Position numbers and translations under genes: made by a program. Below the pieces are notes generated by a model that saw only the letters and a program-made list of their open reading frames with translations, had not been told where the DNA came from and made no database searches. Shown here piece after piece: positions 4,715 to 61,701 of a stretch of 64,000 nucleotides of DNA. Position 1 is the first letter of the stretch; each line of letters starts with the position of its first letter. This DNA comes from Moniliella sp. 'wahieum' (lineage: Eukaryota): NCBI GenBank assembly GCA_003971905.1, contig RSEE01000095.1, positions 124,001-188,000 of the forward strand, written 5' to 3'.

Positions 4715-6721
4715 TTAGGCGGCGTTGTTGGCAGCGGACAGGGCGGCCTGGCGCTTAAGAGCTGGGGGCGAGTCGCCACGGGGGAGGAAGACCTCAACGA
4801 CGTGGGCCTTGTCGGCCTTGTTGAACGACGGGTCAGTCAACAGCTTCTCCAGCTCAGCCTTGGTGTGGATGGCGTGGTACTGCGTCTTGGACATGACCGG
4901 GTCCGTGGCGTGCGAGGGCACGTTGGGCTTGGTCCAGGTAGGCGGGGGCGTGAGGAAGTCAATCAACTTGGAGTGGTTCCAGATCGCAATGTCGTTGTAG
5001 AACTCGTCGGGCCAAAGATTTGGCGCTCAATTTCGTATCCGTCGTTGTTGAGGATAAAGATAAGGGGCGTCAAACCGTGACGGAAGACGGTGCCGAGTTC
5101 CTGTGCAGTAAGTTGCAGCGACCCATCACCAATGAAGTGCACCGTGCGCCAGGACGCTGGGGGTTGTGCTGCTGCAGCTGGCGCAGACCAAGGGCCGCAC
5201 CCAGAACAGCGCCACCAGTGAAACCAATGGAGCCCCAGAGCATTTGGGCAATCAGCTTAGCGTTCTTGGGGAACGTCACGTCGATCAGACCGAACGAAGA
5301 GGTACCGGTCTCACCAAGCACAACGTCGCCCTCCTGGAAGAACTGGCCCATCCGGGGCCAGAAGTAGCCCTGGGTGATGACGTCGTTGGCCTTGAAGCCC
5401 TTCGCGCCGCCAAGACGCGAGAGGGTAAGCTCATCCAGCTCCTGGATCTGCTCGTCCACAGAGGGAAGAGCGTTGAGGGTAAGGGAGCGGACAGGCGCCA
5501 GAAGGGACTTGGTGATGGCCAGGCGCTTCTCAGCCATGCCAGCGAAGGCAGCAGTCAGCTTGGGCAGGAGCCACTTCATCTTGATGTCCTCAAAGACGGC
5601 ATAGCCAATCTTGGTGTGGTCCGAGTGGAGCTCGATGGTGGCCGTGCGCTTGGTACGGTAGGAGAAGGAACCCGTGTTGTAGTCCGAAAGGAGACCACCA
5701 ATCGAGAGGATCAAGTCGGAAGCCTCGACGATTTCCTTGACGGCAGGCTTGCTCAAGCTGCCAAGGTAGACACCACCGAACTGGGCGTTGTTGAGCTCAG
5801 TCACGACCGTCTTGCCCATGGGGGTGGTGAAGACGGGGAGGCCAGTGACCTCGGCAAACTTGCGGGTCTCCTCAACCACGTTGTGGCGCGAGGCGCAAGC
5901 GTCGACCAGGATGATCGGCTGGGTAGCAGCCTTGACACGCTTGATGATCTCGTCAAGCACGTTGCGCTCAATCTCCTCGTTGTTGGGCGAGACCGTGGTC
6001 TGGAGCTTGTACTCTTGCAGGCGCTTGGCAGCCGTAACGGGCAGGGGGAGGACCATGTTGGAGGGGTAGCCAATGTAGACGGGGAGGGAGCGGGACACGC
6101 AGAATTCGAGGATCGAGTCAATGGCGCGGCAAGCGTCAAGGCCAGTGGTGATGTCCTCCGCCTTGGTGCCCTTGGGGATCAGGGGCAGACGGCCCTCACG
6201 GTGCATCTGGTACAGGTCAAGCTGCGCACCCGTGATCTGGCGGGCCATGTTGAGGAAAGCGTCGAACTTGTGGTCACCTAGGAGGCACAAGAGGTCAGAT
6301 GAGAATCCAGCAATGAAAAGGAAAAGGAAAAGGAGGCAAACATACCCAGGGTGTGGTGAAGCAAAAGACCCTCATCCTGAGCCTTGGTCGAGGGAGTGCC
6401 GACAATGTGGATGACGGGCAAGCGCTCAGCCATGCTGCCACCAAGGGCGTTGCAGGCGCTCAGCTCGCCGACACCGAAGGTGGTGGTGAGCACAGCAGGG
6501 CGCGGGTGGCCCTCAGAGAGCACACGGGCGAGACCGTCGGCCGAGTAACCGGCGTTGAGCTCGTTGGAGTTGCCAATCCAGCCGAGACCGCACTCACGCC
6601 AGCGGGTGAGCATGGCGAGGGTGAAGTCGCCAGGAAGACCCTGGACAAACTCGACCTCGAGCTGCTTCAAGCGCTCGCAGAGGTAGTCGGTGAGGGTGAT
6701 GGTGCCAGCAACCGGGGCCAT
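4715..6721 (-). CDS. PDC1: Pyruvate decarboxylase (intron ~6279-6346)
   Basis: YLCERLKQL..GLPGDF, NELNAGYSADG, TTFGVGELSA, LLHHTLG, GETGTSSFG, QMLWGSIG, the TPP motif (IGDGSLQLTAQE...NNDGYEIE) and a C-terminal VVEV. Confidence 0.96.
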
Positions 6722-9700
6722 TGTGGAAAAGGTGGGTGGGAGTACGCAAGAGGTACTGGGGAACGATGGGGAGGGATTTTTTGGGGCGCGGGGAGGGGGC
6801 TTCTTATACTGCTACGGCGGGAATGCCAGTGTGGGTGCATCATCCTGGCCATCGGCAGCAGAGCAGGGAGCCGGCGTGGGTGCTCAGGCTGAGCGGGGAG
6901 GCCGGCGGAGGATTGTGCAAGAGGCAAGTGCTGGATGCTGGCCAGAGCTGGCGATGGTGGGTCGACATTCGCCTTGGCCGCTGAGCCAGAAGGAGCAGTT
7001 TAATTGGGAGGTTTAACTTCAGCCGGGCATGGCGCCAGTGTCACTACCCCTCCTCTTCCGGGCACAGGGGCACTCTTCGGTCCGTGCATACACCCTAGGT
7101 TGTGAGCGCACCTGTGCGGCCGGCGCTACCAGGCACTGGCTGCCCATCATATGATCGGCCATCGATCCATCCTGCCTCCCCATCTTGCCAGATCAGCCAG
7201 AGCCACACCGGGCACCATCTGCCATCACTAGATCACCTATCATCTTCCCTTCCATTTCTTCTGGCTCGAGCGCGTGAGCTAACCTCGCCCCTCCTCGTGA
7301 ATATCAAACTGCGTAGCTCAGCACACGCACCACTGGGCAGCTGCCTACCGCAGCCAACAGCTATACCACGCCAAATTTCAACCCAAGTGGGCGCAGCTCC
7401 ATCGGAAACCCAAACTTCCGCATTCGAAGGGCACACCTCATGGTTGACATGTTGACATTCACAATATTCAATGACCTTACTTCTCTCGGGCCTCGCCTTC
7501 AGGTCAAAACGTTGCAGGGACCGTGGAACCGACGAAGAGCTCGCTCTCAAAAGCACTGGCAGCAGGCTTAACTGTGCCTCTTGGAACTTAGTCTCAGATC
7601 TCAGTTGTCACGGGCCTAGCTAGCGAGGCGGCGATGAGGAATGGAGATGGTATTCCATTCAGCTATACTAAGGAGAGCCAGACCTATGGGCCGTGATATA
7701 TAGGCGCCGGGTTCGGAGGGCAGTGGAAGCTCGTGGAAGGTCCGGGACGCACTGTCCCTCCGGTGCACTGTGTGTATCGGGCCACGTGTCACTAATCACT
7801 GAAGGCCGATGGGCTCTGGGCCACTGGGCGTCAACATCAGTTGGGAGTATGTGACAGTGGGGAGAGCATCGAAAATAGCCACATCCCTGGATGTGTGCTG
7901 CGCGAGAGTATATGTGAGCCCCTCAATTCTCTTCCTGAGGTCTTCCAATACCGTAGAAAAGCCTTCCCATATCGGTCTTCAAGCTTCAACTGCTTTACAG
8001 AGACGAAGATCGATCCGATTATCAGGGATTGTCGCTTGTCAACATTATAGCCTAGGTACACACACGCCAGATAGTTGATCACTGTGCCACAGTTATATCG
8101 GCTAGAATCTTGCTGTTGTCGAGGAAAGAATTTGGAAGGAATGAGACTGCACAGTGGCCGCGCAGCAAACCGGCTTGGGTCTACGGGTGCGACTAACTTC
8201 CAGTGCGACACCATCCCAGCCCTGTCTCTTGCGTGTAATTATTTGATTCCGGGCGGTGGATTCTTCTCCCTTTGGGGCTTCTGGGTGAAGCTCGAAGTGC
8301 GATTACTTTCCTGGGAAGAGATGGAACTTATGCGGAGATTGTGATCAGCTTGATGGTTATCGGTTATCGGTTATCGGTTACCGGTTATGAGATGTCTTGC
8401 AAACCCACCCACACAACAGAAGGATCAGATTGATCACAACATCAGATGTGCTATACCCCAGATTCAGGAAAATGGCATCGTCTATAACTGGTATCGCCAT
8501 ACTTCTCGCATAATCCCACGGTCCACTACTAGCCTCATAACCGACGTGGTAATCTCTCTCTGTAGTATCTCTGGGGGGTAGGCACCCTTAAGCGGGACCC
8601 CCCCCCCCCCCGATGTAGACTTGAGGCTGAACGGATGGGTACTTGGCGTACTCAGGCCTGTTGTGGAGGCATGATGGAGAACCACCGCATTTCAGACCCA
8701 AAGGTCCCTAGCACTAAGCTGGTTGGTGCGTGGCGGCGATCATGAGTGAGGCCTAAGGCTTGTAAATGGATAACACCTCGTCTTCTGGCCGTGGTCGGCG
8801 CTGTTGAGGCACGAGGCTTTTGAGAGATGGACGTAAAAGATGTGGGTTTTGTTGTTTCTCCCTAGAGACAACAAGGGCATGAAGTAAGTCGATCGAGGTG
8901 TGGATCTGCGGTGGCCGTTGGGATGGAGGCGAGCAATACCAAGAAGAATAAGGGTTAGAGGGGGGAGGGTGCCTACAGCGGAAGTGGCTGGAGAAAACGA
9001 TCAGAGAAGCGAAGAGAGGAGATGATGAGGTTTGATGGAAGACCACATATGAGAGACGAGGTACAGAAATAATGTGGATCGACAGAAAAGAGTAACTGCC
9101 TGTGACACGTAAGAGGACGGCAGGAAAGGGAGTGAGCTGTGAGAGCTCACATTCGAGCCTTGGGCGCTGACCGTCATCCCTTCGCTTCCCGCTGTAGGGG
9201 CCAGCATGTTGAGCTTGTCTGGGTGCCTTGAAGCCACCCTTATAATGAGGCATTTGCTGTTCGCTCCATCATTCTTTTCTCATGTGCCTCACTGGCCACA
9301 TATTACCTCTCTTCATCTTCGACGCTGTGATTTGGCTTTTCTTTCCCCTATGCTCTGCCTCGTACAGGGTCGCTCCTCTGTTAGTATGCAGTACTGCCAC
9401 CTCTCCTTTGTATTGCCCTGTTTGTTGTTGTTGTTATTTCAGAGCGACCGTCGCGTCGTCGACAAAGGACGGGTTGGCGGAGTGGGTGGGAGGAGGTGGG
9501 GGCCGCCGTTGATGTTTTTTGTCGATCGCATCTCTTGCGTGGTTGGCAGGGGCAGAGGGCGGAAGGAGTGTGAATGTTGAACGTTTGAACATGCGGCCTC
9601 GCCACGTGACTGGCACAGGTCACATGACCCCTGTCTCTGGGCTGGAGGATGCGTGATGTGTGATGTGTGATGGATACGCACAGCGGCAGATTCCGCAACG

Positions 9701-10058: not shown

Positions 10059-12528
<2,470 letters not shown>

Positions 12529-42143: not shown

Positions 42144-43288
42144 GGGGAGGGGATGGGGAAGAAGGGGAATAGAGGTGGTGGTGGTCGGGCGTCGAGCAAA
42201 TGCAAGGCCCTAGAGCAGAAGAATCCAGAGACGTCTCGTTGTGGCGCACAAAAACCCTGCCCACAGCAGGATTTAATATCGACGCTGGCGCTGGGCCGAG
42301 CAAAAGCCTATACATAGCACCCCCTGTAGGACGCCCCCCGTCCTCTGCTCTGCTGCCCTCCCCGACAGGTCAACCCGATCAACCTGATCAACGCGCGCAT
42401 CTCAGTCATCACATGCATCATCGACATCCGTCGCCATCATACCCACCACCCCACCGATCCTCTCGGTTTCGCAAAACCTTCAGTTGGTGTGATGTGGGGG
42501 TGATAGCTTGTCCAGGCTGGTGCCACGGCTCAGGGGCACTAGACCAGTTCATATGCCAGAGAATCGACGTGCTACTGCGCGCGCGCCCGCCTTTCCTGTC
42601 CTCCTTCTCTGCAGTTGGTGTCTTAGTTGTCTCTCTCCACATCACCGCTCCCCTCTTCGCTTCGGTCGTAGCCGCGTTCCCCCTCTCTGTAACTGATAGA
42701 CTGGCCATCTTTCCTGTAGACTGCTCGTCGGAGAGTGCCATGTTCTACGGCTCAACAACTTCTGCCAAAGAAGAGATAGATACATCAAAGCAAAAAACCC
42801 GAAAACATTTGATTGTTGCCAGGTTTTGCATCACCGTCTCGCGTCGACACCACCGCCCCGCCTCCACTGCCATGATCATGCTACTACAATAAGCGCTAAG
42901 CCCGCATCTGCACAACCGGCGCAAGCGCCCGATGTGATTGTAACTGTGGGATAAATTCAGCATATGTGCTACACAGAAGAGCCAGAGAGTGAGTTGTGTG
43001 GAGATGCCCGAGAAGTCGTTTTCTCTTATCATTCCGTTTACAACCTAGCCACTTTACCCACTTTGTGGAGGTCCAGGGTCATGCCCTTCGATTTCTCAAT
43101 AAAGTAGCTTACATCCTACTTTCCCACCGACTGGGCGCCATCATCCCCTTTGCCAACCAAAAAGAGAAGCAGGAGCAGGAGGTTCTTCCCCAACGTCTCA
43201 GCAAACAAAAGTGCCACAAAGGTCGAGTCGCTCTATCTTCCACACTGGAAAAAAGACCTGAACGAAAGTCCAATCGTCGTTGCCATCT

Positions 43289-43387
43289 GTTCTATTAGCT
43301 CAGTTGGCTAGAGCGTCCGACTGTTACACAGACGGCCTGTGCCCCTTTGGCATCGGGAGGTCGTTGGTTCGAGCCCAACATGGAACG
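43289..43387 (+). tRNA. tRNA-Asn(GTT) with a 25-nt intron
   Basis: Acceptor GTTCTAT/ATGGAAC, D arm AGCTCAGTTGGCTAGAGC, anticodon loop CTGTTA followed by the intron after position 37, T arm GTTGG-TTCGAGC-CCAAC, and a downstream T-run. Confidence 0.95.
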
Positions 43388-43407
43388 AAAACTTTTATTG
43401 CTTTTGC

Positions 43408-43602
43408 CGATGAGACCTAGAGTCCTGATGGTCCTCGAAGGTGATGCAATCGCACTGATGGTGGCGGTGGGGTAATCAGCAATGCCTATAGATGAACATC
43501 AAGCAGCGAGTCGCTATCAGGGGCTATAAGCTGCAGGGCAAAAGGAGGGAGAAAAAGGATAGATATAACTGTGTGCGAGTCAGCACCAGCTTTGGCTCAA
43601 AA
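43408..43602 (-). repeat. Degenerate LTR copy (related to 48810-49047)
   Basis: Roughly 85% identical by eye over ~135 bp to 48810-48950. Similarity starts exactly at GATGAGACC in both copies, and this copy ends CTCAAAA versus CTCAACA. Confidence 0.7.
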
Positions 43603-43734
43603 GACGCAGCCGCTCCTGTCACTGTAACATCGTTTGATCCCTGTAACCCCCGCCCCCCGTTCCTCCGTATATAACCCTCCTATCATCCTCTCCTCAGCTC
43701 TTCTTGTGCTCACACCACCACCACCACATCGCCA

Positions 43735-46235
43735 ATGGAAGGGCACGCCTCCCACACCTGTTCCCCTGCCGCCCGCCGTCCGGCTCGTCTGGCCCAATTC
43801 CGCCCCCGACACTTCCTGCAGCCAACAGCCCCCAACCCTGCCACCAGCCGCTTTACCGCCCCCTTCCTGCCCTGGGAATGGGCCCGTGTGCCGCATGAAG
43901 TTCTGCTGCAGATCATGGAAACGGCTGCCGCCATCAGCAGCGATCTGTTGTTCCCTTGCCTCCTCGTGTGCCGGACGTGGAGCGCGGCCGCAGTCATCCC
44001 GCTCTGGCATTCTCCCTCGTTTCCCCATCCGGCTACCTTGGACCGCTTCACCTCCGTCTTGGCCCAGGCCCAACAGACCCATTCCACTTTTTACCCATAC
44101 CCCATCTTGGTTCGCAAACTCGACCTTTCCGTCCTGCCCGATGACTTCCTGTCACCGAATGACTAAGCTCGCTCCAATTTCCAATTCCGCATCCTGTGTC
44201 TCTCGCTCTTCCCTTCCCTTTTGCTTCTGTTCTCTGCCTGATGCCTTCTGTTTCCTCCCACGAACGATCTTGCCTTTCCCCCCGCCTCTGACAGGACCTT
44301 GGTCTCCCTCGTTTAGCCCCGACTGTTACACTTCCCGCCGCTCCGAACCGTGCACGTGGATAGCTTTAAATTGTGCACGCGCACGCAAACACTGGTACTC
44401 AGCGACCGCGGGTGCGACTTGTTGACGGACGTCCAAGTCGCCGCTCTGATCCGAGCCTACCCTCGCCTCTGCCACGTGGGTCTCTTATGCATGGACAATG
44501 TCGGCCCATCGACGATGGAGGCCTTGACGTTGGCCCGTGAGTTGCAACATCTTGAGCTGAAGGACTGTACGTTCGTTACGAGCACCATGGTGGAGCAAGT
44601 GCTACTCAAGTGTCCCCTACTCAAAGAGGTCCACCTGGGCGGCACCCACAACATAATAGGCGACCGGGGGATTGGTGCTCTGGCCCGTCTCTGTCTTCAC
44701 CTCGAGCACGTCGAGCTAGACAGCCTTATCTACATTACCGACCAGGCAGTGCGAGCGCTGTGGACGCAGAATTCGTACGCACGCTGCGCATGTGGAATTG
44801 CCCTACGTTGACCTCATATGCGTTCCCCAACCGCGGCGACGTCCCCCTTCCATCAACAGGCATCACGGCTGCTGCCACCACAACCCGCGATCCACAGGGT
44901 TCGGGTCGGCCCTTTCTCGAAGATAGCAGCAGCTTACCGCCTCCGCACGACCTATCCCGGTCGGACGACGACCAAGCTTCCCCCGAGACTGCCGACCTAC
45001 ATCCTGCGTTAGCTCTGAGCTGTACCAAACTGTACCAACCGCTCCTGATGGGCAAGTGCTTGACAACGGTTTCCTTGATGGGCTGTAGCCAACTCACCGA
45101 TTCAGCGATTCAGGGACTCGTTGCCGCAGCGCCCCATTTTCAAGACGTAACGTTGGGCATGTGTCCGCAGTTGGGCGATGGAGCGCTGGACGCCTTGGCC
45201 CAGTTTTGGGCAAAGGCTTGCAGTTTGTCCTGTTGGCGTATTTGAGCCACATTACGGATGCGGGGGTGGTGCGGCTGACGCAACAGTGCACGGGCCTGAA
45301 GGGGTAACTTTGACAGAGTGTCCGCTGAGTGATCGGTCGGTGTTGAACCTGATGGTTCGTCTCCGCCAGCTGCGCGGGATTGCGCTGCACCGCATGCGGG
45401 GGTTGAGCACGATGAGTGTGTATGCGCTGGCGCTTTGTCAGTCACTGCAAAAGCGGTGCTTCTAGGCGGGTGGCAGCCGGCGTTCACTCCGTCGCCTATC
45501 TTTCATCTCCTGATTACGCTCCCGCACTTGCATAGCCTTAAGCTCAACGTCAATCCTGTGAATCAAACGAAGGATTCGCAGCAATCTTTCCAGCCCAATC
45601 CAGCCGACTCGCTTGGTCCGGCGTGGTGGGACCCAGCCAGCTCGCTCGGTCCGGCGTGGTGGGACCCAGCCGGTTCGCTTAGTCCTGAGTGGTGGGACCC
45701 AGCCATCTCGAGCTACGTTCGCCATCAGGGCGTAGTCGCGCTTAAAGAGTACATGATCAATTGTCTTTACCGCCCCGGCACTGTCCGGGTTGTCCTGTCG
45801 CTCCCGCTGTACGACAGGGATGGCTTTCTGGCCCAAGCCCTGCTCCCCTCTCCGCCCCCCTATCATTACCAACATAGAAGCACGTTCACCCTTCCCGATC
45901 CTATAAACTTTTTGGTGCCGCCAACAGCGGACTCGCGCCAGTGGCGGCAACAATACCACCACCAACAAAAACGTGAACAACCACAACCACAACCCCAACC
46001 ACAACCACAACCACAACCACAACCACAACAGCAACCACAACAACAACACGAATCATCACCGCCCCTTCTTCCTACCTTGCACCAACGGATCAAGGCGCGT
46101 CTGTCGCAACGGAACCGGCGCCGATCAATGAGACGCTGGACCCTGTTATGGCGCGCTCCGTTCATCTTCGGACACCGAGCCCCGCATTTCTTTGACCTCT
46201 CATCGAAGCACACGCCAGCCCCACGACACTTGTGA
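43735..46235 (+). CDS. Grr1-like F-box/leucine-rich-repeat protein, diverged paralog (probable intron ~44163-44294; indels)
   Basis: F-box VPHEVLLQIM..LFPCLLVCRTW...LWHSP, then YPYPILVRKLDLS, then Cys-containing LRRs (SLMGCSQLTDSAIQGLVAAAP, LGMCPQLGDGAL, HITDAGVVRL). TATATAA at ~43668. Confidence 0.85.
45604..45703 (+). repeat. Three 33-bp tandem units in the F-box gene (SL(G/S)P(A/E)WWDPA)
   Basis: TCGCT(T/C)GGTCCGGCGTGGTGGGACCCAGCC repeated three times, the third copy more divergent. Confidence 0.9.
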
Positions 46236-46599
46236 ATAAGAGTCAGCACGGGCAACTTGCCGCGGATACTTTCCGTGGAAAGCCAGGAAAGGACCGGACT
46301 TATTAAACGGTACGAAGCTTCGTATCTGCGGCGCCCGGTCTTGGTAGAACCCCACATCTACTGCGCCCAACGGATCGCAGTATGGGCATAACAGGCCGCC
46401 CTTTATCTCTTACTACTGTAGATTTCCTTCTGTTGATGCCTTCTGTTCTGATGTTGCGGTATATTGAAGCAGCCCTGTCTGTGAGGCTTGCTGGCGGTGG
46501 CCCTCACCGCCCAACCCCTGTCTTCCCCCCAACTTCCTTCTTCACTCTTCACCTTTACGCTTACGAATTTAGTACGACTTACGTGGACCGCTCTGCAAG

Positions 46600-48676
46600 C
46601 CGCGGTTACTAGTATGAGTAGGCTATCGACTTGCACTACCCGTCCATCTGCAAGGACTATAGGAGCGCGACTAGGACGTTAGTAGTGAGGTAAATGCGTT
46701 CTTATCCTTGAAGACAGACGGGCGCGCGCGCGAATCACTGATGTTGCGCAGGGAGGGCGGCTGGCGGAGGACTCCCCGCGCGCCCCTATTGCTGATGATG
46801 GGGAATAGCTGTGGATGCAGCAGAACTGCCCGCGCTAGGTGCCCGTCCCTGAGAGTTAGTCCCTTGTTGGTTGGCGGAAACGAGCGGCACGGCTCCACGT
46901 GTGCTCATATGGTATGAGGCAGCGGTAGAAGGGACAAAGAGACCGCAAGGGTTGGTAGCCCACTGTGCGGTACCGTGCGAAGGGGGGTAACCAAGAATGC
47001 GTTCAGCATTTCTGCCTCCATCCTTGCGCAAGACATTGCCACTTAGGGAAGCAGCATGAGCCGGGGAGGAGGTGGTACCTCGGGACGAGCGTTCACTTCT
47101 GGAAGACCCGCCACGGGACCTAGTGTTGGTGCGATGATCGTGTCCGCGAGCAGAAGATGGAGAAAACGACGTCGCAGAAGGACGAACTGCAGATGAGTGC
47201 GTTGCCACAAGGGTCAAGAGTTCCTCGTATGTTTTATCGACATATGGAATCAACATGCCGTTCTCCTGTATCGCGTTAATGACCGCTGTACGGAGGATGG
47301 TGTCTGGCAGAGGAGAGTCCAGTCAAAAGTTGGTTTTGTGTACCAACAAACGATGCTGCTGAACAAATTGGGCCCCCGTCCGAGAAACAAAGGAAAGACC
47401 AAGGAGTTCTGTCAGCGTGTCGATTTTCTCCGACGGGGAGATGTGACCGTAGCGTTCCCGAAGGAGAGCAAACAGGGACGATGCACGAGAATCCACTTCA
47501 TTCTCATGAAATGAATCCTGAATAGTGCGATGTAGTCGGACGTAAAGGGGATCAAAAAGCTTACGGTCCAGACCGGGCTTATAACCAGCGCCGGTAGGCC
47601 CATGCTCCACGATCTCCCGTGCCCCCGGGATTGCCCGATCCATAGCCGCAAGGGTGTGGTTGGCCCACGGCCAAAATGGTTGTCCGGCCTTGAACTTGCC
47701 GTCTTTGTCCACAGTGGTAGTCAGGGTTTTCAAAGCAGATAACGTCTCAGGATCCTTGCCTTCGTCACGGAGTTGCCGGAACAAAACCATTTGTGCTTGA
47801 GGTCCAAGGTCCTGACCATAGCGGCCAACGGCATATTCATGGATTCGTTTCCAAGGCGTTCCAACGTCAATGAAGACGGTGTGCAAGTAGTCGACTGCTT
47901 CATCCAAAGTGACGGTAGAGGGAGAAACAGGGATTGCATCTTTCAGGGCAGCCGCAGAATGCGTAGTGTCGGAAGGCAGTTGCTGTATAACCTCCATAGC
48001 AGCTGGAAGGCCCACGCCAGCACCCCAACGTTTCTCGGCTGCATCCAGGAGACGGTCCGCAGATACGCCGGAACGGAAAAGCTTAGGTAAAGTTGACACG
48101 ATGGTATCATCAATCGGAGGAGTCAGCGGCGGTATCGTTGTTACCACAGGAGTATCACTAATGGATTCGTCGTGAGGCACGGGTGACGCGACCGGCTGTG
48201 GAGTTGGGACGGGATCTGGAAGGTCAGGTGTTTCGGGGGAGTGTATATGGGAAGAGGAGGGGGGGAAATGGGAAGAAGAGGAGAACCAAGATGATGTGCA
48301 AAAGTCCAACATCACTTGACGAAAGGTGGTACGCAATTCGTCGAAGTGGCGCGCGACAGCAACAGACGTTTGGGAAGACCGATCGCTGGGAATCCGCTTA
48401 ATAGGATCATCAATCATTTTCTCGATCTTGAGGTTGAGGGATGAGATACTGCGGAGATGGACTTGAAAATCAGGCGTCAGGGTTTTCTACCAGAGGGGTC
48501 TGGTCCTGAAGAACATGGTAAAGGGTTTGGTATTGGTCCAGTTGCTCTTCAGCCATCTGAGACACGCGTTCGAAGGTGATGCCTTCTGTAGGAAAAGGAG
48601 ATGGAAGATGTTCGTCTGCCCAGTCCGGGTTCGAACCCAAGGGGGAAGGGGTATTAGAGAGCGGAGTGGCGCTCAT
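46600..48676 (-). pseudogene. Decayed Ty1/Copia-like gag-protease
   Basis: Gag-like ASSLFALLRERYG..EKIDTLTELL with in-frame stops at 47323 and 46786. A protease-like ISDSRARPSVFKDKNAFTSL..IVLADGRVV follows (compare the Copia consensus DSGA..F.D...F..L..I.LADG). Confidence 0.65.
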
Positions 48677-48809
48677 TGTTGACGAAATACGCCAAAGGGA
48701 GTGATTGGGAATGGGAATGGGTATGAGTATGGCAAAGGGATGGAATTGACGAATGCTGCTGGGTGATCACCGTTGCTCACTGGATGAGCGAAGAGAGTTG
48801 TTGTAACTC

Positions 48810-49047
48810 TGATGAGACCTGCGAGCTGGAGAGTCCTGATGGTCCTTGAGGGTGATGCAATCGCACTGGTGGTGGTGGTGTGGCAACCAGCAATGTCGAC
48901 AGAGGAACATCAAGCAGTGAGTCGCCATCAGGGACTAAGCTGCAGGACAAGGAGAACAACAGGATAGGGAAAACAACGGAACTCCCAGGCCTGTATGAGG
49001 AGGAACTGAAGGGACATTGGCCAAAGCACGAGCCACCCAGCTCAACA
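48810..49047 (-). mobile_element. 5' LTR of the Copia-like element (238 bp)
   Basis: The minus strand starts TGTTGAG and ends CTCATCA (TG..CA with a 6/7 terminal inverted repeat). It lies just upstream of the gag start, and a second copy is at 43408. Confidence 0.7.
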
Positions 49048-49631
49048 TTTACTTTTGCTATTTCTGAGTTTAAAACCCAGGTAACACTGGCATTCCACCT
49101 GATAAATGATTAACGATTGCACACGTAGAGTAAGTACCCCATCCCCTACTGGGAAAAGAAGCTGTATGATCGGATCCTCCTGTACATGCAGTACAGGTGG
49201 TATGCACGGCGGTATCACTCAATACATTTGTGGATGCCAACGCAGTGGTGGAGGGAGCCAAGGTCCATTGAAAAAGGAGTGAGGGTTGTGTTTACAGTCC
49301 ACATTGTAACACGTAATACTGGAAGAAGAAACGAGGGTATGCTCGGGCAAGAGAAGAGAAAAAAGGAGTGGAAAAGGAGAGGAGATTGTCCAAAGATCAG
49401 CAGATCAGCCAGCGATCTCGATCAGTATCAGTCTGGGGCCACAACAGAGAAACTTGTTTCGGTTCTGGAGCAACAAGCGTCCCAAAACAAAGCAGGCACA
49501 AGAGATACGATAGCCAAAAAAAAACGACAGAAAAAAAACAGGTGCCACAGCCCGGGTTCAGGACGTTCAGGGTAAATATCAAATCCCCACCCTGGCAAGT
49601 GCGACAGAGAAGAAGCGAAGAGGCAGCGCAA

Positions 49632-61068: not shown

Positions 61069-61430
61069 GTAAGGCCTAAAGGTCGGATCGACGCGGGAGA
61101 CTAGAACGGCGTGGTGAGTTCCAGGGAAACAAATAAGAACAACAACTCAGCCCAGGCTGAGAGGAGCATACAACGGGCTAGCTAGCTACCGGGTTGGATC
61201 GTAAATGTCACCGCCAGGCAACTAACTGCCACGATGGGTGGATGACTACCCCCCAAGCCAGTTGCTAACTTCCAAACGCCTCTTCCACACATGACGATTG
61301 TTGCGTGCTTGGGAGATGGTGTATATCAGTGGTTGACGAGTACCAGGGTTTGAGTACCGCCTCGACGGAAAAGAGTAGGAAGGCAGAACAGGGGAAATTG
61401 AGGAATTTATGCCCGGGAAGAGAAAAAAAA

Positions 61431-61529
61431 CGTTCCATGTTGGGCTCGAACCAACGACCTCCCGATGCCAAAGGGGCATAGGCCGTCTGTGTAACAGTCG
61501 GACGCTCTAGCCAACTGAGCTAATGGAAC
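61431..61529 (-). tRNA. tRNA-Asn(GTT) with a 25-nt intron
   Basis: Reverse complement of 43289-43387 with two substitutions, followed by a T8 terminator. Confidence 0.95.
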
Positions 61530-61701
61530 AAGTATTGGGTAGTCAGCCTGTTAGGAAAAGGCGGCTGACAAGCAAGCATTCATCTCGTAGACATAGGTGG
61601 TTTATATTGCAGGCTGGCAATCAACGAGGGGACAACCACCTTCGTCTCCCCCCGTCTGCAGCATCCCTCGGGTGGCATTGGTTGGTGCGACTGTCCTCCA
61701 C

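Follow-up and report, generated by a model that had tools for sequence, protein, structure and literature searches.

Reverse transcription leaves the two long terminal repeats (LTRs) of a retrotransposon identical over their whole length. Within the Ty1/copia group (Pseudoviridae), the Gag protein of Ty1 has no zinc knuckle, and the domestication of a Ty1-prime gag as Drt2 has reportedly been published (PMC10951436). In PMC7264820, transduced host sequences are described as usually sense-oriented and fragmentary, and antisense open reading frames (aORFs) as having no host homologues and coexisting with pol. In a text search of PMC3726574, there was no occurrence of F-box, intron or orientation. 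The locus described here lies in a 64,000-nt stretch of DNA from Moniliella sp. 'wahieum' (assembly GCA_003971905.1, contig RSEE01000095.1, positions 124,001 to 188,000), referred to below as the window, in which all positions are counted. It holds what is left of a highly divergent, probably Ty1/copia-like LTR retrotransposon, namely two LTR-like repeats and a gag-like gene on the minus strand, together with a plus-strand gene for an F-box/leucine-rich repeat (LRR) protein situated between the repeats.

The original prediction described this locus as one LTR-bounded Copia-like element in which a captured Grr1-like F-box/LRR gene, in antisense orientation, had taken the place of pol. The retroelement parts of that description stand (the LTRs, a gag by predicted fold, the lack of pol and an antisense FBXL-type gene between the repeats), while their union in a single mobile unit is the part in doubt. 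Preference is given to two remnants, distinct but from one family, around a resident F-box gene, a reading that carries about an even chance, over one chimeric element. One remnant would be the LTR left beside a tRNA-Asn gene (43408-43629), and the other a 3'-truncated LTR-gag unit farther downstream, with the 238-bp LTR (48810-49047) driving the minus-strand gag; the F-box/LRR gene between them would be a resident, working host gene with its own TATA box.

The LTR-like repeats

The repeats are placed as follows.

43408-43629, minus strand: left LTR copy, about 222 bp; in the orientation of the element the 3' LTR or a solo LTR; 43408-43570 is solid and 43571-43629 is probable U3 with indels.
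48810-49047, minus strand: right LTR copy, 238 bp; in the orientation of the element the 5' LTR, with TG..CA ends.

The two same-orientation repeats that had been reported are real. BLAST detects two copies, and no others, within the 64-kb window (83% over 144 nt), and the global alignment of 43408-43570 with 48810-48975 contains 135 matches, 20 mismatches (14 of them transitions) and 19 gap columns. Expressed as divergence, 20 of the 155 aligned bases differ (13%; Jukes-Cantor K 0.14), and gaps of at least 2 nt occur at least three times in 163 nt. The right copy starts with TGATGAG and ends with CTCAACA, so the TG..CA ends and the terminal inverted repeat (6/7) described for it were recovered. 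The left copy begins on the plus strand with CG where TG would be expected, and in the orientation of the element it begins with TGTT at 43629. When the minus strands are aligned with MAFFT, the starts of both copies coincide, each with TGTT, and both copies end in CTCATC(A/G).

The repeats had been said to diverge in their right halves, and similarity indeed falls sharply past 43570/48975: the local alignment score beyond this point is reached by 191 of 1000 shuffles. The global alignment of the U3 parts (43571-43629 with 48976-49047) is marginal: 134 of 2000 shuffles attain its score, as do 5.9% of the window controls. The left copy had been placed at 43408-43602. Its start is retained, and its end is moved: on the coincident TGTT starts and this marginal U3 similarity, the copy probably spans 43408-43629, with a U3 side that is far more diverged and richer in indels. 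The structural features of an LTR pair (two direct LTRs, TG..CA ends and short inverted repeats) are present, with firm alignment over 163 nt only. A divergence of 13%, multi-base indels and a barely alignable U3 argue against a single unit, whose LTRs would have started out identical, and suggest that the two LTRs stem from different insertions.

The minus-strand gag-like gene and the missing pol

The region inside the right LTR contains the following features.

48677-48809, minus strand: leader from the right LTR to the start of gag; a primer-binding site was not recognised in it by eye.
46789-48676, minus strand: gag-like gene, coiled at the N-terminus and comprising also a proline-rich linker, a capsid region of two lobes and a tail rich in S and R.
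46236-46788, no strand assigned: spacer of 553 nt between the convergent genes; no family match in six frames and no LTR fragment.

The gag that had been proposed on the minus strand after the LTR is borne out by predicted fold and not by Pfam, in which no family matches the open reading frame (ORF). The fold supports a very divergent gag with a Ty1/Copia-like capsid, and it persuades by the specificity of the top matches. An AlphaFold model was made of the read-through protein, with X at the stop; its mean predicted local distance difference test score (pLDDT) is 38, and residues 350-435 reach 56-74. Compared with 48,161 PDB representatives, residues 350-435 have as their top three chains retroelement Gag capsid C-terminal domains exclusively. 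The best matches are Drt2 (PDB 9rxy; Z 8.9 over 83 residues), the Copia capsid (8vvw; Z 8.5), PEG10 (Z 7.9) and dArc2 (7.0), where differences in Z within 1 count as ties. Foldseek against the PDB gives no match at E <= 0.001 for gag; among its highest-ranked chains are the Ty1-prime capsid C-terminal domain (CA-CTD; 9rxw, prob 0.92) and Drt2 (prob 0.89).

Only one believable relative of the gag was found by phmmer among 1.84 billion representatives, a protein of 507 aa designated P0001 (E 9e-5). It is recovered by BLASTP at 2e-12 and aligns over the full length at 25% identity. The other of the two phmmer matches, P0002, is a low-complexity repeat protein and was treated as spurious. The model of P0001 (mean pLDDT 46) has the Copia capsid as its first match (Z 10.3, 168 of 184 residues over both lobes, at a high root-mean-square deviation (rmsd) of 10.5), with Drt2 (9.3), PEG10 (9.0) and the two-lobe dARC1 (7.7) as further matches; the models of gag and P0001 share one two-sequence alignment and are not independent, and such Z values are common for helical proteins. 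P0001 itself is a stand-alone protein with no pol domain, known from one 5,549-nt contig, and shows a faint match to Retrotrans_gag (E 0.085). The gag family seems to be almost unsampled. Word-based homologue searches with the gag ORF and with the gag alignment returned no relatives, none of the 89 pattern matches of the gag alignment in metagenome contigs and none of 50 viral contigs proved to be related loci, and tblastn with P0001 detected no second gag copy within the window. In the Atlas the best score of the gag is 0.88, to unnamed clusters, and gag families score just 0.79-0.81, which serves as a lead only.

It is very improbable that the locus is no retroelement at all, but a 160-nt dispersed non-LTR repeat next to an unrelated helical protein. 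Such an origin would agree with the lack of a Pfam family, with the Foldseek result at E <= 0.001, with the low confidence of both models and with the failure to find a primer-binding site or polypurine tract. It is contradicted by the Gag capsid domains in all of the top three places among 48,161 chains, by the two-lobe match of the P0001 model to the Copia capsid, and by the repeat itself, which has TG..CA ends and an inverted repeat and abuts the ORF in the orientation of a 5' LTR.

The gag is nearly intact. Over 566 codons it contains one stop, an in-frame TGA at 47323-47325, and it shows one single-base frame change near 48470-48490, in a homopolymer; its GC content at third codon positions (GC3) is 0.51. 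The ATG at 48676 is taken as the putative start, and the 68-aa N-terminal ORF has no significant similarity to P0001. When P0001 is compared with the window by tblastn, the match runs from 47754 to 47128 (E 3e-13) and spans the TGA, so the stop breaks a formerly continuous gag gene.

This stop bears on another explanation, in which the gag would be a domesticated, gag-only host gene encoding a capsid-derived restriction factor like Drt2 or Ty1 p22, with the LTR as its promoter and the second LTR as unrelated debris. It is compatible with the reading as two remnants and was judged improbable. The TGA lies inside the capsid C-terminal domain, with homology to P0001 continuing past it, and a GC3 of 0.51 is unlike that of host genes. 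The near-intact gag in the complete absence of pol would fit domestication, as would the best structural match (Z 8.9), Drt2 being a Ty1 Gag CA-CTD that became endogenised. The sole relative, P0001, is likewise a stand-alone protein of 507 aa, but its occurrence on a single 5,549-nt contig suits an element equally well.

None of the 125 six-frame segments of at least 30 aa in 43390-49060 matches protease, integrase, reverse transcriptase (RT) or RNase H at E <= 0.05. The reported absence of integrase, RT and RNase H is thereby confirmed, and the reported protease remnant is not: it has no family match, and its motif-level likeness lacks statistical support. The copia order of protease (PR), integrase (IN), RT and RNase H (RH) has no pol domain to show here, and the element is at best non-autonomous or truncated.

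The F-box/LRR gene and the quality of the assembly

On the plus strand, between the left LTR and the spacer, are the following features.

43668-43674, plus strand: TATATAA, read from the sequence, 61 nt before the ATG of the F-box gene.
43735-46235, plus strand: F-box/LRR (FBXL-type) gene, 776 codons in six register-tracked pieces.

The antisense F-box/LRR gene between the repeats is confirmed by an F-box-like domain in its first exon (PF12937, E 2e-7, 31.1 bits against a cut-off of 24.3) and by matches of its LRR ORF to FBXL proteins in the PDB (phmmer: FBXL2 1.1e-12, FBXL17 5.8e-11, COI1 7.3e-7). The LRR ORF also matches LRR_FBXL15 clusters in the Atlas at 0.95. The name Grr1-like appears fair at the level of the class, that is, an F-box with FBXL-type LRRs. 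A word-based search with the LRR piece against longer proteins gave no close relative, and none of 168 metagenome contigs matched by the F-box piece was a related locus. The start codon was confirmed to be 133 nt away from 43602, and the TATATAA upstream of it is likely to be the gene's own core promoter. In the C-terminal tail (45600-45710 and 45948-46055) three tandem copies of a 33-nt repeat, whose 11-residue unit includes a WWDP motif, were observed along with a Q/P run of the CAACCA type. ARAGORN, with introns allowed, places a tRNA-Pro with a 137-nt intron at 45166-45375 inside the gene; the call is probably false, and Rfam shows no tRNA there.

The intron that had been predicted in the gene is plausible at about 44150-44316. 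This interval is pyrimidine-rich, contains stops, and includes CTGAC and TTTAG; a canonical donor in the right phase was not found in it by eye.

The gene changes frame by one base near 44772, 45209, 45304 and 45453, and the LRR register keeps all residues across these sites (by eye). A housekeeping gene of the same window served as a control. Aconitase (10463-12305) has four frame changes within 1.84 kb, at which the Pfam pieces abut or overlap in the DNA, leaving introns no space.

10792-10795, 11280-11292, 11492-11507 and 12156-12163: aconitase frame junctions, with abutting or overlapping Pfam pieces.

When aconitase is aligned to the solved enzyme, two of its pieces join at residues 342-345 and are free of introns. 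The frame-change sites of aconitase, the F-box gene and gag lie at or beside short single-base runs (by eye), and the density of frame breaks in the F-box gene and gag is not above the level of aconitase. Since a housekeeping aconitase is broken four times, the assembly seems to be error-prone, and the frame breaks of both the F-box gene and gag probably stem from indel errors in the assembly rather than from decay. The data suggest that coding sequence contains an indel error about every 0.5 kb. In the thiamine pyrophosphate (TPP) enzyme gene of the window (4966-6811), ORF pieces overlap in different frames as well. Errors of this kind make intact genes look like pseudogenes, and apparent pseudogenes in this genome need to be treated with caution.

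The idea that the F-box gene is a pseudogene was rejected, given that the aconitase control shows the same frame breaks. There are no stops in its 776 codons, where neutral decay at K/2 predicts six (P(0) = 0.0025), and its GC3 of 0.67 is near that of two host genes (0.71 and 0.77). Because of this stop-free length and the host-like GC3, the gene looks as if it is under selection and, as far as can be read from the sequence, like a working host-type gene encoding an SCF substrate adaptor.

One element or two remnants

The outer flanks, the neighbouring tRNA gene and the one candidate priming tract are as follows.

43288-43388, plus strand: tRNA-Asn(GTT) with a 25-nt intron (Rfam tRNA 52.9 bits; ARAGORN with introns allowed); it ends 20 nt from the left LTR.
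43403-43407, no strand assigned: left outer flank TTTGC, candidate target-site duplication.
49048-49052, no strand assigned: right outer flank TTTAC, candidate target-site duplication.
43647-43666, minus strand (strand of the element): G-rich purine tract, a weak candidate for a polypurine tract by eye, not adjacent to the left LTR but 17 nt from its start (43629).

The chief alternative to two remnants is one chimeric, non-autonomous LTR element (43408-49047) inserted once beside tRNA-Asn, with its pol replaced by the antisense F-box/LRR gene. This is possible, at appreciably less than an even chance. The replacement would have preceded a transposition in trans or, alternatively, followed the insertion and taken place in situ, and an antisense intron would stay unspliced in the RNA of the element. 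In its most explicit form, the element would have exchanged pol for a complete, selected antisense FBXL gene with its own promoter and intron and been inserted as a unit 20 nt behind the tRNA; this form is tentative.

Several observations favour such an element and weigh against two separate remnants. The outer flanks TTTGC and TTTAC match at four of five positions, as had been reported; at fixed positions, at least 4/5 is reached by 1.8% of random and 1.8% of local 5-mer pairs (chance 0.018), in T-rich sequence. A flank match of its own was not found for the left LTR: its two flanks, TTTGC and TCGTT, agree at one of five positions by eye. The left copy is for this reason not a simple solo LTR, and the reading as two remnants needs additional deletions. 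Both LTRs run from TGTT to CTCATC(A/G) in one orientation, the interval of 5,640 bp has a usual size for a copia-type element, gag lies directly inside the 5' LTR, and the G-rich purine tract is located internal to the 3' LTR, 17 nt away from it. Further copies of the LTR or of gag were not detected in the window, nor was any additional retroelement domain among its 139 ORFs of at least 150 aa, so that two independent hits 5.4 kb apart would require a local hot spot. In plant elements, additional ORFs are known that lie in antisense before the 3' LTR, after pol, and have a promoter of their own (PMC7264820).

The state of preservation of the parts tells against the chimeric element. With LTRs 13% diverged, a poorly alignable U3 and a nearly intact gag, selection would have to keep both gag and the F-box gene. 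At half the indel density of the LTRs, simple arithmetic leads to about a dozen frameshifts expected in 1.9 kb of gag, and one was seen, in a homopolymer; gag is thus too well kept for the age implied by the LTR divergence, which supports separate remnants. The simulation of stops is on the other side: three were expected in gag and one was seen (P(<=1 stop) = 0.19), and equal age is not rejected. A cargo with promoter and intron requires acquisition at the DNA level, the F-box gene has host-like GC3 and its own TATA box, and transduced host sequences are mostly in sense orientation (PMC7264820). By eye, no TGG-type primer-binding site was found after 48810 and no clean polypurine tract adjoining the left LTR was seen, in agreement with the original prediction, the nearest polypurine candidate being the tract 17 nt from 43629; these results were counted as a lack of signs of a mobile unit, in favour of two remnants.

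The last 14 nt on the left (43394-43407) resemble the first 11 nt on the right (49048-49058), matching at 11 positions with a single gap of 3 nt, a score reached by 153 of 3000 shuffles. This likeness is longer than a 5-bp duplication and may be a T-rich coincidence behind a Pol III terminator. The tRNA-Asn was not called by ARAGORN at default settings and was found with introns allowed. A second tRNA-Asn(GTT) with the same 25-nt intron, differing by one base, lies at 61430-61530 on the minus strand. Taken as a proxy for an empty site, this second copy has flanks unrelated to those of the first and no adjoining LTR.

Significance

If the reading as two remnants is true, the locus amounts to unremarkable genomic debris surrounding a host gene, and its main value is a very divergent gag family missed by sequence libraries. 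If the locus is a single unit, it would offer a rare example of an LTR retrotransposon whose cargo is an entire, functional host gene, antisense and equipped with promoter and intron. It would then represent a whole-gene transduction of fungal type and a possible route for the growth of the F-box family, in contrast to the mostly sense transduced sequences and to the antisense ORFs free of host counterparts (PMC7264820).

The window as a whole

The window is eukaryotic and gene-dense, with a GC content of 0.60. In its 139 ORFs of at least 150 aa, no further retroelement domain was found besides the locus under study.

Housekeeping genes in the window: aconitase, TPP enzyme, mitochondrial carrier, MutS homologue, NIPA transporter and kinase.

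Comparison with known systems

The locus shares with Ty1/copia elements short TG..CA LTRs, a candidate 5-bp flank duplication and a gag directly after the 5' LTR; like Ty1, its gag has no zinc knuckle. Its predicted capsid is nearest to the Ty1/Ty1-prime CA-CTD and the Drosophila Copia capsid, with the Ty3-type capsids (PEG10, Arc) scoring within about 1 Z of Ty1/Copia for the C-terminal lobe. In contrast to these elements, it is devoid of PR, IN, RT and RH, and its gag belongs to no Pfam gag family and has one distant relative in 1.84 billion representatives. Between gag and the 3' LTR the locus has a host-like coding sequence, in antisense and with its own upstream promoter, as is the case for gene23 of the plant LTR element Grande (PMC7264820). 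It differs from the plant aORFs and from transducing elements in having a whole, recognisable FBXL gene in the place of pol, whose joint movement with the element is only a candidate. As in the Drt2/Ty1 p22 system of Saccharomyces, a gag capsid gene is retained without pol, and Drt2 is the top match of the predicted structure; the gag of the locus, in contrast, is full-length with an LTR and has an in-frame stop in the C-terminal lobe. The F-box protein agrees with the FBXL/Grr1 class in its N-terminal F-box (PF12937) and about a dozen cysteine-containing LRRs of about 26 residues, the nearest solved structures being FBXL2, FBXL17, COI1 and FBXL5. It departs from this class in an extended loop within its LRRs and in a tail that carries the three 11-residue repeats and the Q/P run.

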